From a virus, in the UHGV virus genome UHGV-0346409: a DNA stretch of 44,226 nt, one strand, 5' to 3'. Numbering within the stretch: the stretch's first letter is position 1; each line of letters begins with the position of its first letter. The notes below the pieces were generated by a model, which made no database searches, had not been told where the DNA came from, and worked only from the letters and a program-made list of their open reading frames with translations. Both the position numbers and the translations under genes were made by a program. Positions 5,044 through 20,039 of the stretch are shown here, in pieces.

Positions 5044-6039
5044 AGCGACTCCTTGGTGATGTATACTCGGGACCGATCAGCGAATATTGATCAGCTTCCA
5101 TAGCGTCAGTGTCGTTGGTCTTTCCTCATCACAAGTTTGGTCACTTGTGATAAATCCGAATGGTTTGGTCGCCGTTCGGGGTAACTGGCCCGCCTTGTGC
5201 GGGTCTTTTGCTATCTAAAGGGTGCCGGTTACGTTTCCGGCGTCGTTATGTTTCCATCACGACCGTACGGGGCTGGTCTTTCCTGTTTTGAGCTGGTCAG
5301 GCTCATGGTCAACGCTGGTCAGGCGTGGTACTTCCTCCGGTCTTTCCCTGGTGTCACGCTGCGGGTTTGGCCTCTCCTGTTGGGGACTCAGGCACAGCGA
5401 TAAAACCTGGCTGTGTGAAAAAATGGCCCATCGTGCGGACTGGGCAAAGACTAAACACAGCAAATTGATGATGGGCGCCCGGAATCGAACCGGGTAACGG
5501 GCAGGGAGTTCCCGTTAAACACCTGTTCACCACAACCGGGAGCGCACTCCGCCATTTCAAAATTTAACGACAAAGCTCAAAGTTGAGTCGATGAAGTGCG
5601 CTCTCGTGTTGTAGCCAGGACTCTTCCCTGGTGGTCACACCGTATCGCCTTGATGGTGAATCAATCGCTCATACCTGGCTGTGGCTTGCACATTCCGGCT
5701 ACCTGCTATGGAGACAACGCGTTAAGGCTCCGCTTCCATCCAGACCGCTTCGACACATGTGCCATATGCCGGCGAAGTCTTTCCCTCTGTCATCGTGTTG
5801 GCGCCGACGCGCAAAATTTGATGCCGTCTTTCCGGCTGTCAGAACGTGTTTCTGAACAACTGCCGCTGGGTAAGCGTTGTTGATGAAAGTGACTTTACAA
5901 TTTGTATTTGTAATGGTCAACGTATTTTTAAAAAATAATTTGTAGTTAGGGGCAAAAAAATATTCACTGTGTAAAGGTGTTTTTGTGTTAGGGGGAAAGT
6001 TGCATGCCAGCAGCGGCTGGCCTGAAAATTTGAACTGAA

Positions 6040-6453
6040 CTATTTTGTCTGGTTTTTGGCTTCAAGTAGTTCTTTTAGCAGTAGATCGAAGTGCTCTCTT
6101 TTTTCTTTTAGCTCATTGATTAATTTATTTTTTTCGCTCTCAGGCAGTCCTCTGAATAGTTGCAGTAGAGCCTGTTCTTGCGGGGTTAGTTCTTGATTGT
6201 AATTACCCGGGTGTAGCGTGGATTCATCCAAATATTCCCCTTCATTCATGAAGAAAAAATGAACAGGGTATCCGGTCACTTTTGCTAGCTTGTCTAATTT
6301 ATCTTTTCTTGGAGTTACCCCATTACACCATGCCTGAACTGATTGAGCCGTAACCCCAATATGGCGAGCTAACTCAGATTGAGACCAGCCTAAGTCTTTT
6401 AGAATCCGTTGTAGTCGGCTAGCAAAAGCCATGTTTTTCGTTTTTGTGTTCAT
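6040..6453 (-). CDS. Phage repressor, XRE-family HTH, no S24 peptidase domain (CI-like position)
   Basis: N-terminal HTH (LGWSQSELARHIGVTAQSVQAWCNG); helical C-terminus; divergent from cro-like gene. Start ambiguous (ATG 6453 or 6432; ORF-track TTG 6468). Confidence 0.7.
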   Translation of the reverse strand: MNTKTKNMAFASRLQRILKDLGWSQSELARHIGVTAQSVQAWCNGVTPRKDKLDKLAKVTGYPVHFFFMNEGEYLDESTLHPGNYNQELTPQEQALLQLFRGLPESEKNKLINELKEKREHFDLLLKELLEAKNQTK

Positions 6454-6551
6454 ACCGTAAGGATACAAGGTTTAATTGTAGGGATCATTGCAAATATAAT
6501 TTGTAATTACAGTTATGATTTGTAATGATGGCGCGGACACAAGGAGTCCAT
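6454..6551. promoter_or_regulatory. Divergent immunity-region promoter/operator between repressor and cro-like gene
   Basis: AT-rich intergenic region with repeated TTGTAAT-type half-sites, including the palindrome TGTAATTACA at 6503-6512; position between divergent HTH genes. Confidence 0.45.
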
Positions 6552-6782
6552 ATGGATAAACAACTGCAAGACAAAATTCTTTCCGTAATGAGTCAATCCG
6601 AGTTAGGGCGGCGATTAGGGAAAAAACCACAAACGGTAAGCCTCTGGTTCAAAGGAAGGGTTCCCGGTGAAGAGGTTTTGCGCACATCTGAAGCTCTTGA
6701 ATGGCGCGTGACCCCCCATGATCTTAGACCGGATCTTTACCCAAACCCAGATGACAGCTTGCCTAAAACGAAAGCAGCTTAA
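6552..6782 (+). CDS. Cro-like HTH regulator (Cro/YdaS-type)
   Basis: 76-aa ORF with AAGGAG RBS, HTH-like segment (SQSELGRRLGKKPQTVSLWFKG), divergent from repressor. Confidence 0.65.
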   Translation: MDKQLQDKILSVMSQSELGRRLGKKPQTVSLWFKGRVPGEEVLRTSEALEWRVTPHDLRPDLYPNPDDSLPKTKAA

Positions 6783-6840
6783 CTGTTGGTGAGCCCCAAA
6801 TCTGATTAAGCGTAATCAATTTTTAGCGACAGGAGACGCT

Positions 6841-7317
6841 ATGGAAAACCAAGAGGAATTACAAAAAGAGATTTTGACCTGGGCGGCAAGGGCAGGGCAG
6901 GAACTCGTCACGATTGAAATCTGCCGGGCCTAGTTCAGTCAGGGACGCAATGATGAGTTGAGACTACATGAATTTGAGGACGCGGACGGCAATGTGGACT
7001 GGAGAGCCATCAACAACAATCGGCAGAAAATCTTTCGCTGGTTACGTGGCGAGACAACGGCGGCGCGCCGAAAAACTCAGGTGCTGGCCAGTGTGATGAA
7101 AGCCGTGCTACCCGCAGAACGGCGGGCACGTCTGGAGTCGCCGGGCGATCCCGTTTTGCTGGCAACGCTGGCGGCAAAAGAAGGGGTGGAAGCGATTAAC
7201 GCTGTACATCTCCACTTCGCGCCAGAGTTAACTATCCAGGAAATTGACGAAGCAATAGCGGCGCTGGTAGCGACGCGAGGAGCAGTGATACGCACTGCGC
7301 AAGACCACCATGCATGA
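6841..7317 (+). pseudogene. cII/YdaT-like regulatory gene interrupted by a single in-frame TAG at 6931-6933 (30-aa N-terminal ORF plus 119-aa downstream ORF in the same frame)
   Basis: One frame is open from ATG 6841 (AGGAG RBS) to 7317 except for TAG 6931; the downstream ORF has no ATG and was called from TTG 6958; RWLRGET motif and position after cro resemble YdaT/CII-like proteins (recall). Confidence 0.5.
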
Positions 7318-7356
7318 GCGCCTGACCAGCGTTTAACTTATACCGAGGAAAGACCG

Positions 7357-7581
7357 ATGTTAAGACATATTGACCGCATTACCTGGCGTAACGGCTGGCA
7401 CCTGAATGGGCGCCCGGCACATGTTGCAGAGATCCAACCTATTTTTGATGGGCGTATGGCTGCCGCGCTTTCGGTGTGGGAGCAGTATGAATCCAGGAAG
7501 GTCGAGTTGCGCGACAAAGGGCTGAGCAATGCGGACTATGAAGCCGGTTGTCGTCAGATAGCCGAAGCTCTGGAGATCTGA
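7357..7581 (+). CDS. Hypothetical protein (74 aa)
   Basis: ATG preceded by CCGAGGAAAGACC motif. Confidence 0.5.
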   Translation: MLRHIDRITWRNGWHLNGRPAHVAEIQPIFDGRMAAALSVWEQYESRKVELRDKGLSNADYEAGCRQIAEALEI

Positions 7582-7583
7582 GT

Positions 7584-8648
7584 ATGAGTCGTTTGCTGAT
7601 TAACGAAAACCCCCTTCAGGTCCTGCCCACGTTGGCATGCACTATAGGGTTGAATGAAGCCATCGTTCTACAGCAAATCCACTACTGGCTGAATTCATCT
7701 CAAAATTTCTTCGAAAATCGCCACTGGGTGTACAACAGTGTGACCGATTGGCAAGAACAATTCCCGTTCTGGAGCGAGTCGACAATAAAACGCGTGCTGG
7801 CCAATCTGGAAAAATTGAATGTGGTATTTACTGGGAACTTTAACAGTGATGCCTGGGATAAAACCAAGTGGTATTCAATCAATTATGCCCAGTTATGTAA
7901 GATTGAAGAGACAACATTCCCTGTGGCCAATCGATTAGGTCAAGTTGACCCAATCGAAGAGGTCAATGTGACCCAAGCATCAGGTCAAGTTGACCCATGC
8001 GCTAAGGTCAAAATGACCCAATCTCTTACAGAGAATACAACAGAGAGTACTACAGAGATAAAAGATCCCCCTTACCCCCAAAAGGGGGAGGGCGAGGAAA
8101 TCATTCTCGCTGACGCTCAAAAAGCTCTGAACTACTACAACGAGAAAGTCGGTACACGCTGCCGCGATGTTAAACCGTTTGTCATGCTGCTGACTGCCAC
8201 CACCACCCGCGCTGGTTACAGCGTGGCTGAGATTCAGTTAGTAATTCGTTGGGTTATTGCGACATGGCGCCGTCGTAGCGGAAGCGTGCCGAAACCTGCG
8301 AACATTTGCCGCGTAAACCGGTTTGACGGATATCTGGCTGACGCTGAGGCGTGGGCCACTGCTGAGGCTGCCGTTGACCCTGCTGAAGTTGTGAAGAGCT
8401 ACAACGAGATTCTGGGCGACCTGCTACCTATAGCTGAAATTGATACTGACCGCCGTCGGGCAATCCTGCGCCTGCTGGCACATATGCGCACGCAAACTCT
8501 TGGCGCATTTATCGGCTACTTCGAAAAATTCCGCGATAACGCCCCAGACTTCTATTTCGGCGGCGAATATCGCACCGGCTGGCGGGCAGGGTTTGATTAC
8601 CTGATGAAGCCAGAAACACTGCGTAAAACCAGGGAAGGGGCATTATGA
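7584..8648 (+). CDS. Replication initiator (lambda O-like) containing the origin iterons
   Basis: 354-aa ORF from ATG 7584 (GGAG upstream); four iterons inside the coding sequence as in lambda O/ori; coupled (ATGA) to the helicase gene. Confidence 0.65.
   Translation: MSRLLINENPLQVLPTLACTIGLNEAIVLQQIHYWLNSSQNFFENRHWVYNSVTDWQEQFPFWSESTIKRVLANLEKLNVVFTGNFNSDAWDKTKWYSINYAQLCKIEETTFPVANRLGQVDPIEEVNVTQASGQVDPCAKVKMTQSLTENTTESTTEIKDPPYPQKGEGEEIILADAQKALNYYNEKVGTRCRDVKPFVMLLTATTTRAGYSVAEIQLVIRWVIATWRRRSGSVPKPANICRVNRFDGYLADAEAWATAEAAVDPAEVVKSYNEILGDLLPIAEIDTDRRRAILRLLAHMRTQTLGAFIGYFEKFRDNAPDFYFGGEYRTGWRAGFDYLMKPETLRKTREGAL
7938..8020 (+). repeat. Origin iterons: four copies of GGTCAA-NN-TGACCCA at 7938, 7961, 7983, 8006, followed by an AT-rich stretch
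   Basis: Read directly; 22-23 bp spacing (about two helical turns). Confidence 0.75.
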
Positions 8649-10036
8649 ATCCAGAAGAACTGGAAGCGATCGTTCTCGCTGGTCTGATTAACGGTGGCGC
8701 GACGCCTGACGCGTTTGATGTGATTGCCACTACTCCGGAGGAAGCCTTCAGCATCGTGTTTCACCGTCGCGCTTTCAGCGAAATCAAAAAGCAGGCACTG
8801 GCGAACGGCATGATCGACATGTTGTTTATCAGCGAAGCGCTGGGCGGTTCCAGCCTTGCGGATCTGTCTCAAATATCCCGGATCCCGGCAACGGTACCGA
8901 ATCTGAAAGGCTATGCCGGGAAAATGGTGCGGGCATGGCGGAGCCGCAAAATGGCGGCATTGTTGCAATCTGGCGCGGATGGTATCCGTAACGCTGTAAA
9001 CCAGAGTCAGCGTGATGAGGTTATTGAATCTCATGTTGCTCAGGTGCTGGATATGAGCGCCGCTACCGGCACAGTCCAGCCGGTACACATCAAAGAGCTG
9101 TTACCGCTCTACATTGACACCGTTGATAAACGGATGTCTGGTGACGCGCAGGAAATGATGCTGAAAACCGGAGTCGAGGATCTGGATGTCGCCCTGGGCG
9201 GTATCAACATGACCGATCTTGTTGTGGTTGCCGGTCGTCCAGGCATGGGGAAAACGGAATTTACCCTGAAGATTATCGATGGCGTTACCGCAGATGGCGG
9301 CGGCGCACTGTTTTTCAGCATGGAAATGGGCGCTCAGCAGATTGTTGAACGTACCGTTGCCGGGGCTGGGAATATGTCAACGTCGCGTCTGCGTAATCCA
9401 AAAGAAATGGACGATGAGGATTTGACCAGATTAACCGCCGCGCTTGCAATCATGCAGGATCGCGATATCTGGATTGTTGATGCCACTGATTTGACGATTG
9501 AGCAGATCCGCGCCATTGCAGAGACTCATAAACGCCGTTATCCGCACCTGAAGTTGATTGGTGTTGATTACATGGGCCTGATCAAAAAACCGAAGGCCGA
9601 GCGCCACGATCTCGCTGTCGGGCATATCTCCCGCAACATGAAGACTATGGCCATGCGTCTGCATACCCCTGTTTTTGCTCTTAGCCAGCTTTCCCGCCAG
9701 GTGGATTCTCGACCTGCTGGCCAGCGTCGCCCGGTGATGTCGGACCTGCGCGATTCCGGCAGTGTTGAGCAGGACGCTGACAGCATTTTGTTTTTGTACC
9801 GCGATGAAGTTTACACACCTGATTCACCTGCAAAGGGTATCGCCGAGGTGATTATCGGTAAAAACCGTTCTGGCGGGGCAGGTGAAATTATTTATCAGGA
9901 ATTCCGGAATGGGCATTTCCTGCCAATTGATCAACACGTAGCACGCGAAAAAATACGCATCCAGAAGGAGGCAGAGCAACCGAGAAAACGTGAAAAACGG
10001 TATTCAAACAAAAACTTTAATACGGACCCATTTTAA
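8645..10036 (+). CDS. Replicative DNA helicase, DnaB family
   Basis: 463-aa ORF with Walker A (GRPGMGKT), and DnaB-like motifs (recall); directly downstream of the initiator. Confidence 0.85.
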   Translation: MNPEELEAIVLAGLINGGATPDAFDVIATTPEEAFSIVFHRRAFSEIKKQALANGMIDMLFISEALGGSSLADLSQISRIPATVPNLKGYAGKMVRAWRSRKMAALLQSGADGIRNAVNQSQRDEVIESHVAQVLDMSAATGTVQPVHIKELLPLYIDTVDKRMSGDAQEMMLKTGVEDLDVALGGINMTDLVVVAGRPGMGKTEFTLKIIDGVTADGGGALFFSMEMGAQQIVERTVAGAGNMSTSRLRNPKEMDDEDLTRLTAALAIMQDRDIWIVDATDLTIEQIRAIAETHKRRYPHLKLIGVDYMGLIKKPKAERHDLAVGHISRNMKTMAMRLHTPVFALSQLSRQVDSRPAGQRRPVMSDLRDSGSVEQDADSILFLYRDEVYTPDSPAKGIAEVIIGKNRSGGAGEIIYQEFRNGHFLPIDQHVAREKIRIQKEAEQPRKREKRYSNKNFNTDPF

Positions 10037-11611: not shown

Positions 11612-12406
11612 ATGACAACTCAAGTATCCGCAGCAGCCATCTCCCCGATTATCCACAACCAACTTCCCGTCCTCACCACCGAATTACTCGCGAATCTCTA
11701 TGGCACAGAGCCGGATTACATTCGTAAAAACCATAACCGGAACTCAGAGCGATTCGTGGTCGGGAAGCATTACTTTTTGCTCGAAGGTGAGGAGTTGCGC
11801 GAATTTAAGCACAGCATGTCTTTAAGACCTCCTGTGAAAATCGCCAGAAATGTCCGCTCTCTCATCCTCTGGACAGAACGCGGCGCAGCTCGCCATGCCA
11901 AAATGCTGGAAACAGAACAGGCCTGGGAAGTTTTCGAAAAGCTGGAAGATTGTTATTTTAGCCAGCGTCCAGAGAGGCGGAGTACAACCACCGATGACCG
12001 CACTCCCTTACGTGATGCCGTTAATATGCTGGTCGGTAAGAAAGGCATGATGTATCCCGATGCCTACACCATGATTCACCAACGTTTCGCCGTCTCTCAC
12101 ATAGAACAACTGTCACAGACGCAAATGTTAGAGGCGATTGAATACATCCACTGCCTGCTACTCGATGAAAATCAGCCAACCATTCCAGATTTTTCTTTTA
12201 TCACCACTATCAAAAATGGAAAAGTGACCAGGATGCGCCATGTTGCCAAAGGCGAACATCTGATGACGTTTGACGCTTTCAAAGAGATCGCTGAGCGGGC
12301 AGGGTATCTGGTGATCCACAGCGACAACCTGCGAAGTATGACGCTGGATAAATTGATGGTAATGGGGAAAAAGTCGGTTGTATCCGTTGCTGATTCAGCA
12401 TTTTGA
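11612..12406 (+). CDS. Antirepressor-like protein with ORF6N/Bro-N-type N-terminal domain
   Basis: N-terminal segment (LPVLTTELLANLYGTEPDYIRKNHNRNSERFVVGKHYFLLEGEELREFK) matches the ORF6N-type antirepressor N-domain by recall; own transcription unit after a terminator. Confidence 0.5.
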   Translation: MTTQVSAAAISPIIHNQLPVLTTELLANLYGTEPDYIRKNHNRNSERFVVGKHYFLLEGEELREFKHSMSLRPPVKIARNVRSLILWTERGAARHAKMLETEQAWEVFEKLEDCYFSQRPERRSTTTDDRTPLRDAVNMLVGKKGMMYPDAYTMIHQRFAVSHIEQLSQTQMLEAIEYIHCLLLDENQPTIPDFSFITTIKNGKVTRMRHVAKGEHLMTFDAFKEIAERAGYLVIHSDNLRSMTLDKLMVMGKKSVVSVADSAF

Positions 12407-16650: not shown

Positions 16651-17139
16651 TTACCCCAACCTCAAGTTCTTTAAACGATAAGTCATCGCATCGTCAGATA
16701 CGCCAAAATAATGCGCCATTATATAACTTGGTTGGCCGTCAGCGTGCAGTTTTCTGACCTCATCAACCGGCATCAGAAGTTCTGCTGCGAACTTGTTCGC
16801 AAAAATTTCATCAGGATGCGTTCCGGCGCTTGCGGTTTCGCCACGTAAATCAACGTACTCATATTCATCACTATGCGATGCTTGCCGGGCGATGTAATGC
16901 CCCAACTCATGCCCACATGAAAAACGTTGACGAACTTTGTTGTCATCACTGTTTAGAAAGATCGCTGGATCTTGATCTTTTTGTTTAATCAGTGCGCCAG
17001 AAACTTTCCCAGGAAGATCGGTAATAAAAACATCTAATCCCATGTCGTGAGCAATTTTCGCTGGATCAACAGGGAAACCACGCCCGCACCAGAACGTGTC
17101 CAGCACTCGCCGGGCGTGCTCTCTTGGGTTGGTAGCCAT
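16651..17139 (-). CDS. ImmA/IrrE-family zinc metallopeptidase (COG2856/DUF955-like)
   Basis: HExxH motif (CGHELGHY) and downstream E..ANKFAAELLMP segment typical of ImmA/IrrE peptidases (recall); GGAGG RBS. Confidence 0.75.
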   Translation of the reverse strand: MATNPREHARRVLDTFWCGRGFPVDPAKIAHDMGLDVFITDLPGKVSGALIKQKDQDPAIFLNSDDNKVRQRFSCGHELGHYIARQASHSDEYEYVDLRGETASAGTHPDEIFANKFAAELLMPVDEVRKLHADGQPSYIMAHYFGVSDDAMTYRLKNLRLG

Positions 17140-19152: not shown

Positions 19153-19749
19153 ATGGCGCAGCATTCATTTATCAGGGTATCCGGCGGTTCGCTAATACCC
19201 GCGACACCAGACACGCAACGCTGGTTGACTGAACGAGTCAAACCAGGTGCTGTTGTGTATGCAGATTTCAAACAGGCGCGTAATCCCGCGTTTCATCGTA
19301 AATTTTTCTCACTTCTCAACCTGGGCTTTGATTACTGGCATCCCTCCGGAGGGGCTATTTCTCCTGCGGAGCGCGAACTGGTTCACGGATACGTTAAGTT
19401 ACTGGCGTATTACGGTGGGCATGGTGATGTCATGGCTGAGCTGGCTGATCAGTATCTTCTCGATGAGTCGGAAAAGCGCGCGGGGAATATCAGTGCGGTG
19501 AAGTCGTTCGAGGCGTTTCGCGCCTGGGCGACTATGGAATCTGGATTTTATGACGTTCATCAGATGCCAGATGGTAGTTTGATGCGTGTACCTCGTTCAA
19601 TCTCGTTTGCTGCGATGGACGATCTTGAGTTCGGTCAACTGTATTCAGCCGTTTTAGATGTGCTGTGGAATTATATTTTGTTCCGCACGTTTGCCTCTCA
19701 GGAGGCCGCTGAAAATGCTGCCGCGCAGCTGTTGGATTACACATCATGA
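19153..19749 (+). CDS. Hypothetical Nin-region protein (198 aa)
   Basis: ORF with GGAG RBS, upstream of the Q-like gene. Confidence 0.5.
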   Translation: MAQHSFIRVSGGSLIPATPDTQRWLTERVKPGAVVYADFKQARNPAFHRKFFSLLNLGFDYWHPSGGAISPAERELVHGYVKLLAYYGGHGDVMAELADQYLLDESEKRAGNISAVKSFEAFRAWATMESGFYDVHQMPDGSLMRVPRSISFAAMDDLEFGQLYSAVLDVLWNYILFRTFASQEAAENAAAQLLDYTS

Positions 19750-20039
19750 AAAAAATCGACCTGAGAAAAGCTGCACGTGGTCGCGCTTGTACTGTGCGTA
19801 TCCCCGGTGTGTGCAATCACAATCCTGAAACCAGCGTACTGGCTCATTATCGTCTCGCCGGAATGTGCGGCACAGCCATCAAACCTCACGATATGCAGGG
19901 CGCTATCGCCTGCAGTGCGTGTCACGATGCCATCGACGGACGTACAAAAACGGATTACGAGCACGACTCATTGTTGTTGATGCACGCTGAGGGAGTTTTC
20001 AGAACACTGGCTATCTGGCGCGATGAGGAGTTTATCTGA
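19746..20039 (+). CDS. Cys-rich Nin-region protein (97 aa), possibly DUF1364/YbcO-like
   Basis: Multiple Cys/His (C..C, H..C); coupled to neighbours by ATGA overlaps; family by recall only. Confidence 0.4.
   Translation: MKKIDLRKAARGRACTVRIPGVCNHNPETSVLAHYRLAGMCGTAIKPHDMQGAIACSACHDAIDGRTKTDYEHDSLLLMHAEGVFRTLAIWRDEEFI

Follow-up and report, generated by a model that had tools for sequence, protein, structure and literature searches.

Within the immunity region of an E. coli prophage, a short ORF ends after 30 codons at a TAG, and the same frame then runs on into a second ORF that lacks an ATG. This arrangement raises the question of whether a single regulatory gene has been interrupted by an amber codon, and, if so, whether the regulator is lost or is still made across or beyond the stop. 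The stretch of DNA analysed here (44,226 bp, hereafter the window) is a complete-looking prophage beside a tRNA-Ser(CGA), with the tRNA site at 94–183, and it carries an integrase, an immunity region, genes for replication and lysis, Q, a head module like that of lambda and a contractile tail of the P2 type.

One ydaT gene and its stop codon

The 30-codon ORF, credited in the sequence-only reading with a good ribosome-binding site, begins with an ATG (6841–6843) that is preceded by AGGAG at 6831–6835 with a 5-nt spacing. Thirty sense codons are followed by the TAG at 6931–6933, past which the frame remains open up to a TGA at 7315–7317, confirming that a single in-frame amber codon splits one gene. 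Reading through the stop yields the 158-aa product that had been described, containing ...QKIFRWLRGET.... The downstream 119-aa ORF has no ATG start, as also stated in that reading: past the stop, the frame offers TTG 6958 as its first start codon and GTG 6994 as its second, with no ATG before codon 86. The coordinates of this gene and its surroundings are collected in Table 1.

The proposal that this gene, located after cro, encodes a YdaT/CII-like regulator was upheld by Pfam, PHROG, fold, gene position and the YdaT-box. The restored product matches the Pfam family YdaT_toxin (PF06254) with 57.4 bits (cut-off 21, E 2e-15) and PHROG 163, ‘CII-like transcriptional activator’, over residues 2–155 (E 2.7e-42), while phmmer aligns it with the PDB entries 3c4r and 8bt1 (YdaT) from residue 5 on. 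The intact allele is named ‘toxin YdaT family protein’ (158 aa) in RefSeq. An AlphaFold2 model of the restored product, built on a 26-sequence alignment (mean pLDDT 91.4), gave 8bt1 and 3c4r as the best PDB matches in Foldseek (probability 1.0). In this model, the helices of the HTH domain span residues 4–18 (a1), 20–33 (a2), 54–69 (a3), 73–89 and 92–99, the Arg-Trp pair R66-W67 sits in the recognition helix a3, and two C-terminal helices of the modelled monomer follow at 104–123 and 128–157. Membership of this gene in the YdaT/CII-equivalent family is thus well supported.

A comparison with homologues was carried out to see whether they span the stop, and they do. In the alignment of 26 family members, the first 30 residues are matched in every member, with M1, W14, A15 and G19 invariant, and position 31 is mostly aromatic; the residue at the stop position is W in Stenotrophomonas phage BUCT708 and F in gp12 of Pectobacterium phage ZF40. 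The homologues therefore cover the N-terminal 30 codons rather than starting at the equivalent of 6958, and these codons belong to the gene. Because of the TAG at codon 31, the window copy does not encode a complete translatable protein and is a nonsense allele (pseudogene). The same alignment also gives the family a mosaic appearance: the window YdaT has an N-terminal domain of the ‘QQIFRWLRG’ type, common to Klebsiella and Citrobacter homologues, and a C-terminal module, ‘RARLESPGDPVLLA...KEG.EA.NAV’, that is otherwise paired with a different N-terminal type (‘QRVQRIYRG’).

The gene order, i.e., a cI-like gene on the minus strand, ydaS/cro-like, ydaT, a 74-aa ORF and replication genes, is the lambdoid immunity arrangement, and ydaT occupies the place expected of its family, after ydaS/cro, with a divergent cI-like gene and with replication genes downstream. 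At the ydaS-ydaT junction, the predicted box CTGATTAAGCGTAATCAA (6802–6819) is the sole match to TTGATTN6AATCAA with at most one mismatch in the 44-kb window, where 0.12 would be expected by chance, so that a candidate cognate operator is present at the sequence level. A consensus scan of 5900–7400 on both strands found no sigma-70-like promoters, and PR/PRM and PRE-like promoters were not placed; the candidates picked by hand inspection of this interval were weak and were not taken as findings. The cI-like repressor (130–142 aa) is a short HTH protein in which Pfam detected no peptidase domain, and the prophage also has an ORF6N-domain (antirepressor-type) protein at 11612–12406 (+) and an ImmA/IrrE metallopeptidase at 16651–17139 (-). 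On the basis of these three gene predictions, induction may proceed via an antirepressor or protease route instead of RecA-mediated self-cleavage.

Table 1. Positions of ydaT, its parts, its neighbours and the private substitutions in the window
Feature	Position	Strand	Evidence or remark
cI-like HTH repressor gene, divergent	6040..6432	-	Pfam HTH_3 E 1.9e-12; RefSeq CDS
Private substitution G>T	6485		cI/cro intergenic, 2 bp left of the tandem 19-bp operator-like units
Two tandem 19-bp operator-like units, cI/cro intergenic (6433-6551)	6487-6505, 6506-6524	.	Repeat search
ydaS/cro-like HTH gene, directly upstream of ydaT	6552..6782	+	Pfam YdaS_toxin and HTH_3; PHROG 35 transcriptional repressor; RefSeq ‘transcriptional regulator’
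YdaT-box-like inverted repeat CTGATT-aagcgt-AATCAA	6802..6819	.	Between ydaS stop and ydaT start
ydaT (CII-equivalent regulator), 158 codons, amber-bearing	6841..7317	+	Intact CDS with the same coordinates in TUM11353, RM10042, STEC434, E24377A; Pfam, PHROG, Foldseek
Residual N-terminal 30-aa ORF, helix a1 and most of a2	6841..6933	+	Frame; AF2 model; conserved N-terminal residues
Amber TAG replacing TGG (Trp31)	6931..6933	+	DNA alignment with relatives; mutated base 6932 (G>A)
Private substitution G>A	6932		Amber in ydaT
Downstream 119-aa ORF, ydaT remnant, TTG = codon 40	6958..7317	+	JGI gene call P0012 (L-start)
74-aa ORF	Between ydaT and replication initiator		Order only
Replication initiator gene	7584-8648		
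DnaB gene	8645-10036		
Private substitution C>T	19864		T40M in DUF1364/YbcO gene (19746-20039), just upstream of the Q antiterminator gene

Origin and distribution of the amber allele

One intact 477-nt CDS lies at these coordinates in five complete E. coli genomes (RM10042, STEC434, E24377A, TUM11353 and Z0117EC0040). A DNA alignment with the near-identical prophages shows one difference at the stop, TGG>TAG, and since these prophages carry TGG at codon 31, the gene has been altered by one G>A transition, at position 6932, that converts Trp31 to amber, in agreement with the nonsense mutation that had been suggested to interrupt the regulator. Using a 61-bp probe centred on the stop, the stretch was found in 448 complete E. 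coli genomes, none of which carries the TAG version, and TGG stands at codon 31 in all 17 relatives that were fetched (14 IMG/VR viral contigs and 3 genomes). A 33-mer containing the TAG gave no match among IMG/VR viral contigs, GTDB representative genomes or JGI metagenome contigs. The missing TAG in the relatives indicates a derived, lineage-private allele rather than a programmed feature.

The TAG allele was found solely through an exact-product look-up of the complete 30-aa ORF, with codon 31 checked in each record. Seven separate public records were obtained, namely ENA ERZ28649270 (SAMN26286675), ERZ27293720, ERZ917242 (run SRR413684, PRJNA422434, human gut) and ERZ1310416 (three samples), Logan SRR18173910 and SRR34361765, and JGI 3300055598, which bears the 119-aa gene call P0012. 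All seven share the same sequence context around codon 31, and stretches of 17.3 kb (L029), 6.1 kb (L024) and 8.9 kb (L040) from three TAG contigs are 100% identical to the window. An apparent divergence of scaffold L039 from the window was rejected, the differences being a run of N only. Six further matches (L026–L028 and L048–L050) were rejected as amber alleles, as their 30-aa ‘product’ is created by the contig end; L048 extends two bases past the 30-aa ORF and reads TG at codon 31, and L026–L028 have the wild-type G at 6485. An exact look-up of the 119-aa product with an M start gave no match, the JGI entry starting with L. The amber is thus a real, inherited knockout present in several independent gut metagenomes. 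However, the seven records may stem from one clonal lineage, so that they demonstrate heritability rather than recurrence of the amber mutation.

Compared with four near-identical prophages, the window has three private substitutions (Table 1), each absent among 5,426 complete genomes. The T at 6485 occurs in none of the 437 complete E. coli genomes with that stretch, is linked with the amber in L024 and L029, and adds one complementary pair to the 23-nt inverted-repeat arms 6484–6506 and 6507–6529. T40M is found on 9 contigs (NCBI, JGI, ENA and Logan), including the NCBI isolate protein EPE3993002.1, and its distribution matches that of the amber, so that it can be used to mark the amber lineage. 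Of the 60 CDS annotated in the window, ydaT alone has an internal stop. The small number of private substitutions and the lack of any other broken CDS indicate that the knockout is recent and that the rest of the prophage is undamaged. Among the near-identical prophages, Z0117EC0040 (L021), whose ydaT is intact, has a 1-bp deletion (near window position 6254) that splits its cI-like gene into CDS 6040–6231 and 6246–6452; this split (locus 6040–6452) is either an independent immunity-region lesion or a homopolymer sequencing error.

Predicted consequences of the knockout and alternative explanations

The YdaT proteins of CP-933P and Rac are functional equivalents of lambda CII, i.e., tetrameric POU-like HTH proteins with an essential Arg-Trp pair in a3, whose binding site, (T/A)TGATT-N6-AATCAA, lies at the ydaS-ydaT junction or at the start of ydaT, and which increase repressor expression by activating a reverse PRE-like promoter (PMC9986795, PMC11879457, PMC8630535). 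The OM operator of CP-933P, which has the same motif as the window box, was footprinted (PMC9986795), and the Rac YdaT-box is ATGATT-N6-AATCAA (PMC11879457). By analogy with these proteins, intact YdaT of the window would bind the NTGATT-N6-AATCAA box at 6802–6819 and would activate a leftward PRE-like promoter, raising repressor synthesis, although this regulatory role is transferred from homologues just ~23–26% identical (Foldseek structural alignment, 8bt1 and 3c4r).

The G>A transition at 6932 has very probably knocked out ydaT in an otherwise intact lambdoid prophage. In a non-suppressor host, translation would break off within helix a2 of the POU-like HTH domain, leaving a 30-residue peptide without the recognition helix a3 and without the C-terminal helices that tetramerise the characterised YdaT proteins. 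According to the AlphaFold2 model, this 30-aa peptide should be incapable of DNA binding or oligomerisation, and since the stop in a2 lies before both a3, with its R66-W67 pair, and the C-terminal helices, the product should be null. The loss of YdaT should impair the establishment of lysogeny after infection, with a cII-like clear-plaque phenotype expected, and the maintenance of an existing prophage should be unaffected, which fits the persistence of the amber allele in several samples. The locus is thus very probably a genuine natural nonsense null allele of a CII-equivalent regulator of lysogeny establishment.

The simplest reading of the mutation is that it reflects neutral decay of a resident prophage. 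It may also have been mildly favoured, since the Rac YdaT is toxic when derepressed. Other broken ydaT alleles, collected via a look-up of the 107-aa C-terminal product and a homology search, bear on this point. Three Logan assemblies of one related prophage background (L030–L032) have lost 5 bp at a tandem AGGGC-AGGGC repeat; in the window, this repeat, AGGGCAGGGC, lies at 6885–6894 (nt 45–54 of ydaT), and deletion of one copy causes a frameshift. Other lesions comprise a 16-bp deletion (L033), G103T turning Gly35 into an opal codon (L035) and a 1-bp deletion (L037), and six frameshifted alleles show at least 97% identity over the aligned part (P0049, P0052, P0053, P0054, P0081 and P0118); some of the frameshifted alleles sit on multi-megabase contigs. 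The scaffolds L036 and L038 have N-gaps exactly at the 6885–6894 repeat, which may be prone to slippage or may vary within samples. This pattern of lesions is what a gene not needed to maintain the resident prophage would show, and mild selection against a protein that, in Rac, is toxic when derepressed would agree with it as well.

A stronger proposal would be that the knockout was positively selected as a host-protective domestication, possibly together with the operator-region substitution at 6485, YdaT being harmful when the switch leaks. It draws on the several independent ydaT lesions in other assemblies, on the filamentation and death that follow Rac YdaT expression (PMC11879457), and on the two private substitutions, out of three, that fall inside the 1.28-kb immunity region. 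However, the YdaT of CP-933P is not toxic (PMC8630535), and, with the amber taken as given, one of the two remaining substitutions would fall in this region too with a chance of ~0.06, which is only suggestive. Intact alleles occur on >2,000 contigs versus tens of broken ones, which is compatible with neutral decay of a gene not needed for maintenance. Positive selection is therefore considered unlikely. A still more specific version, in which ydaT is a recurrent target of host-protective inactivation and the amber and 6485 G>T form a linked pair reshaping or disarming the immunity switch, appears slightly less likely again; if true, this pair would be natural evidence that YdaT expression costs the host.

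Beyond the question of selection, some product might still arise from the amber allele through low-level natural UAG read-through or through restart at TTG 6958 or GTG 6994. These two starts lie 8 and 20 codons past the stop, and gene callers annotate the corresponding products, the 119-aa version in the JGI entry and the 107-aa version from GTG 6994 in the ENA and Logan contigs. In the model, the resulting fragment would hold a3–a7, so that neither the recognition helix nor the C-terminal helices would be lost, and it could have partial or altered (e.g., dominant-negative) activity. However, inspection of the upstream sequences showed that neither start is preceded by a well-spaced Shine-Dalgarno sequence. 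In addition, the YdaT DNA-binding domain is a compact five-helix unit (PMC9986795), from which the fragment would lack a1 and a2, including the conserved W14, A15 and G19, making correct folding of the HTH domain unlikely. An active restart product is thus judged improbable.

Production of full-length YdaT through amber suppression, conditionally, or through programmed read-through at a set low level, which includes the earlier suggestion of a gene relying on amber suppression, is less probable still and did not stand up. The frame is fully open past the TAG, with no further damage downstream, and the prophage adjoins the tRNA-Ser(CGA) gene, which we take to be serU, from which the amber suppressor supD arises by one anticodon change. 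However, ARAGORN run on the window finds this tRNA-Ser as the only tRNA, with its wild-type CGA anticodon, so that the window encodes no cognate suppressor, and the serU neighbourhood is regarded as a curiosity rather than a mechanism here. The TAG, private to one lineage, is conserved in no relative (see the counts above), which argues against programmed read-through, and the missing decay is explained by a recent mutation, given only three private substitutions in 44 kb. The base directly after the stop is a T, which in E. coli makes for efficient termination. As a further effect of the stop, Rho-dependent polarity on the replication genes downstream was considered and rejected: G exceeds C throughout the untranslated stretch, so strong polarity of this kind is not predicted.

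Finally, the idea that the organism has an intact gene, with the TAG introduced by an error of sequencing or assembly, is hardly credible, even though only one base differs from ~450 relatives, as the same TAG recurs in seven assemblies from very different run-accession series, produced by varied assemblers (MEGAHIT-style k109/k127 names, SPAdes NODE names, Logan and JGI), and co-occurs with the private substitutions 6485T (L024 and L029) and T40M.

Comparison with known YdaT and CII systems

The family and its role were already known, as was the annotated intact allele, and nonsense decay of prophage genes is commonplace; the amber is an ordinary case of such decay rather than a new mechanism. 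The analysis does correct the annotation, in that one interrupted ydaT should stand in place of two ORFs, one of 30 aa and a ‘YdaT_toxin’ ORF of 107 or 119 aa. Moreover, the amber prophage and its TGG counterparts, the intact ones being present in sequenced strains, form a natural near-isogenic pair suited to testing the need for YdaT in lysogeny establishment and its toxicity in this prophage family.

The closest structural counterparts, YdaT of CP-933P (E. coli O157:H7, 8bt1) and of E. coli O6 (3c4r), belong like the window protein to PF06254, are encoded after ydaS/cro and have the ‘FRW’ motif of a3 in common with it. In CP-933P, as in the window, the junction of ydaS and ydaT additionally carries the operator motif (T/C)TGATT-N6-AATCAA. 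In contrast, both proteins are only ~23–26% identical to the window YdaT in the Foldseek structural alignment, and the window copy has a premature stop at codon 31. The C-terminal third is also of another sequence type than that of CP-933P, whose YdaT has one 29-residue C-terminal helix, compared with the two predicted for the window protein.

The Rac YdaT of E. coli K-12 is likewise a CII-analogous tetrameric HTH factor that activates the reverse promoter of the repressor gene. Its box lies where its own gene starts, and the window box differs from it at the first base only. For the Rac protein, toxicity and host targets (rcsA) have been described. The Rac ydaT locus was reported to be unmutated despite this toxicity, in contrast to the naturally knocked-out ydaT of the window, and the recurrent ydaT lesions hint that some homologues depart from the statement that the ‘toxic ydaT locus remains unmutated’.

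Full-length homologues in the same cI-cro-cII-replication arrangement are found in Pectobacterium phage ZF40 (gp12, 150 aa) and Stenotrophomonas phage BUCT708 (WCS67729, 148 aa), which differ from the window gene in being intact, in their hosts and in a divergent C-terminal third. Lambda cII occupies the same position as ydaT of the window, after cro and before the replication genes, and ydaT presumably shares its role in establishing lysogeny, although no sequence homology between lambda CII and the window YdaT is detectable beyond a similarity in a3 (PMC11879457). Nonsense mutants of lambda cII form clear plaques, and by analogy the window amber would be expected to give a similar phenotype with maintenance intact. 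However, the cII mutants are laboratory mutants, whereas the amber described here is a natural allele in a resident prophage.
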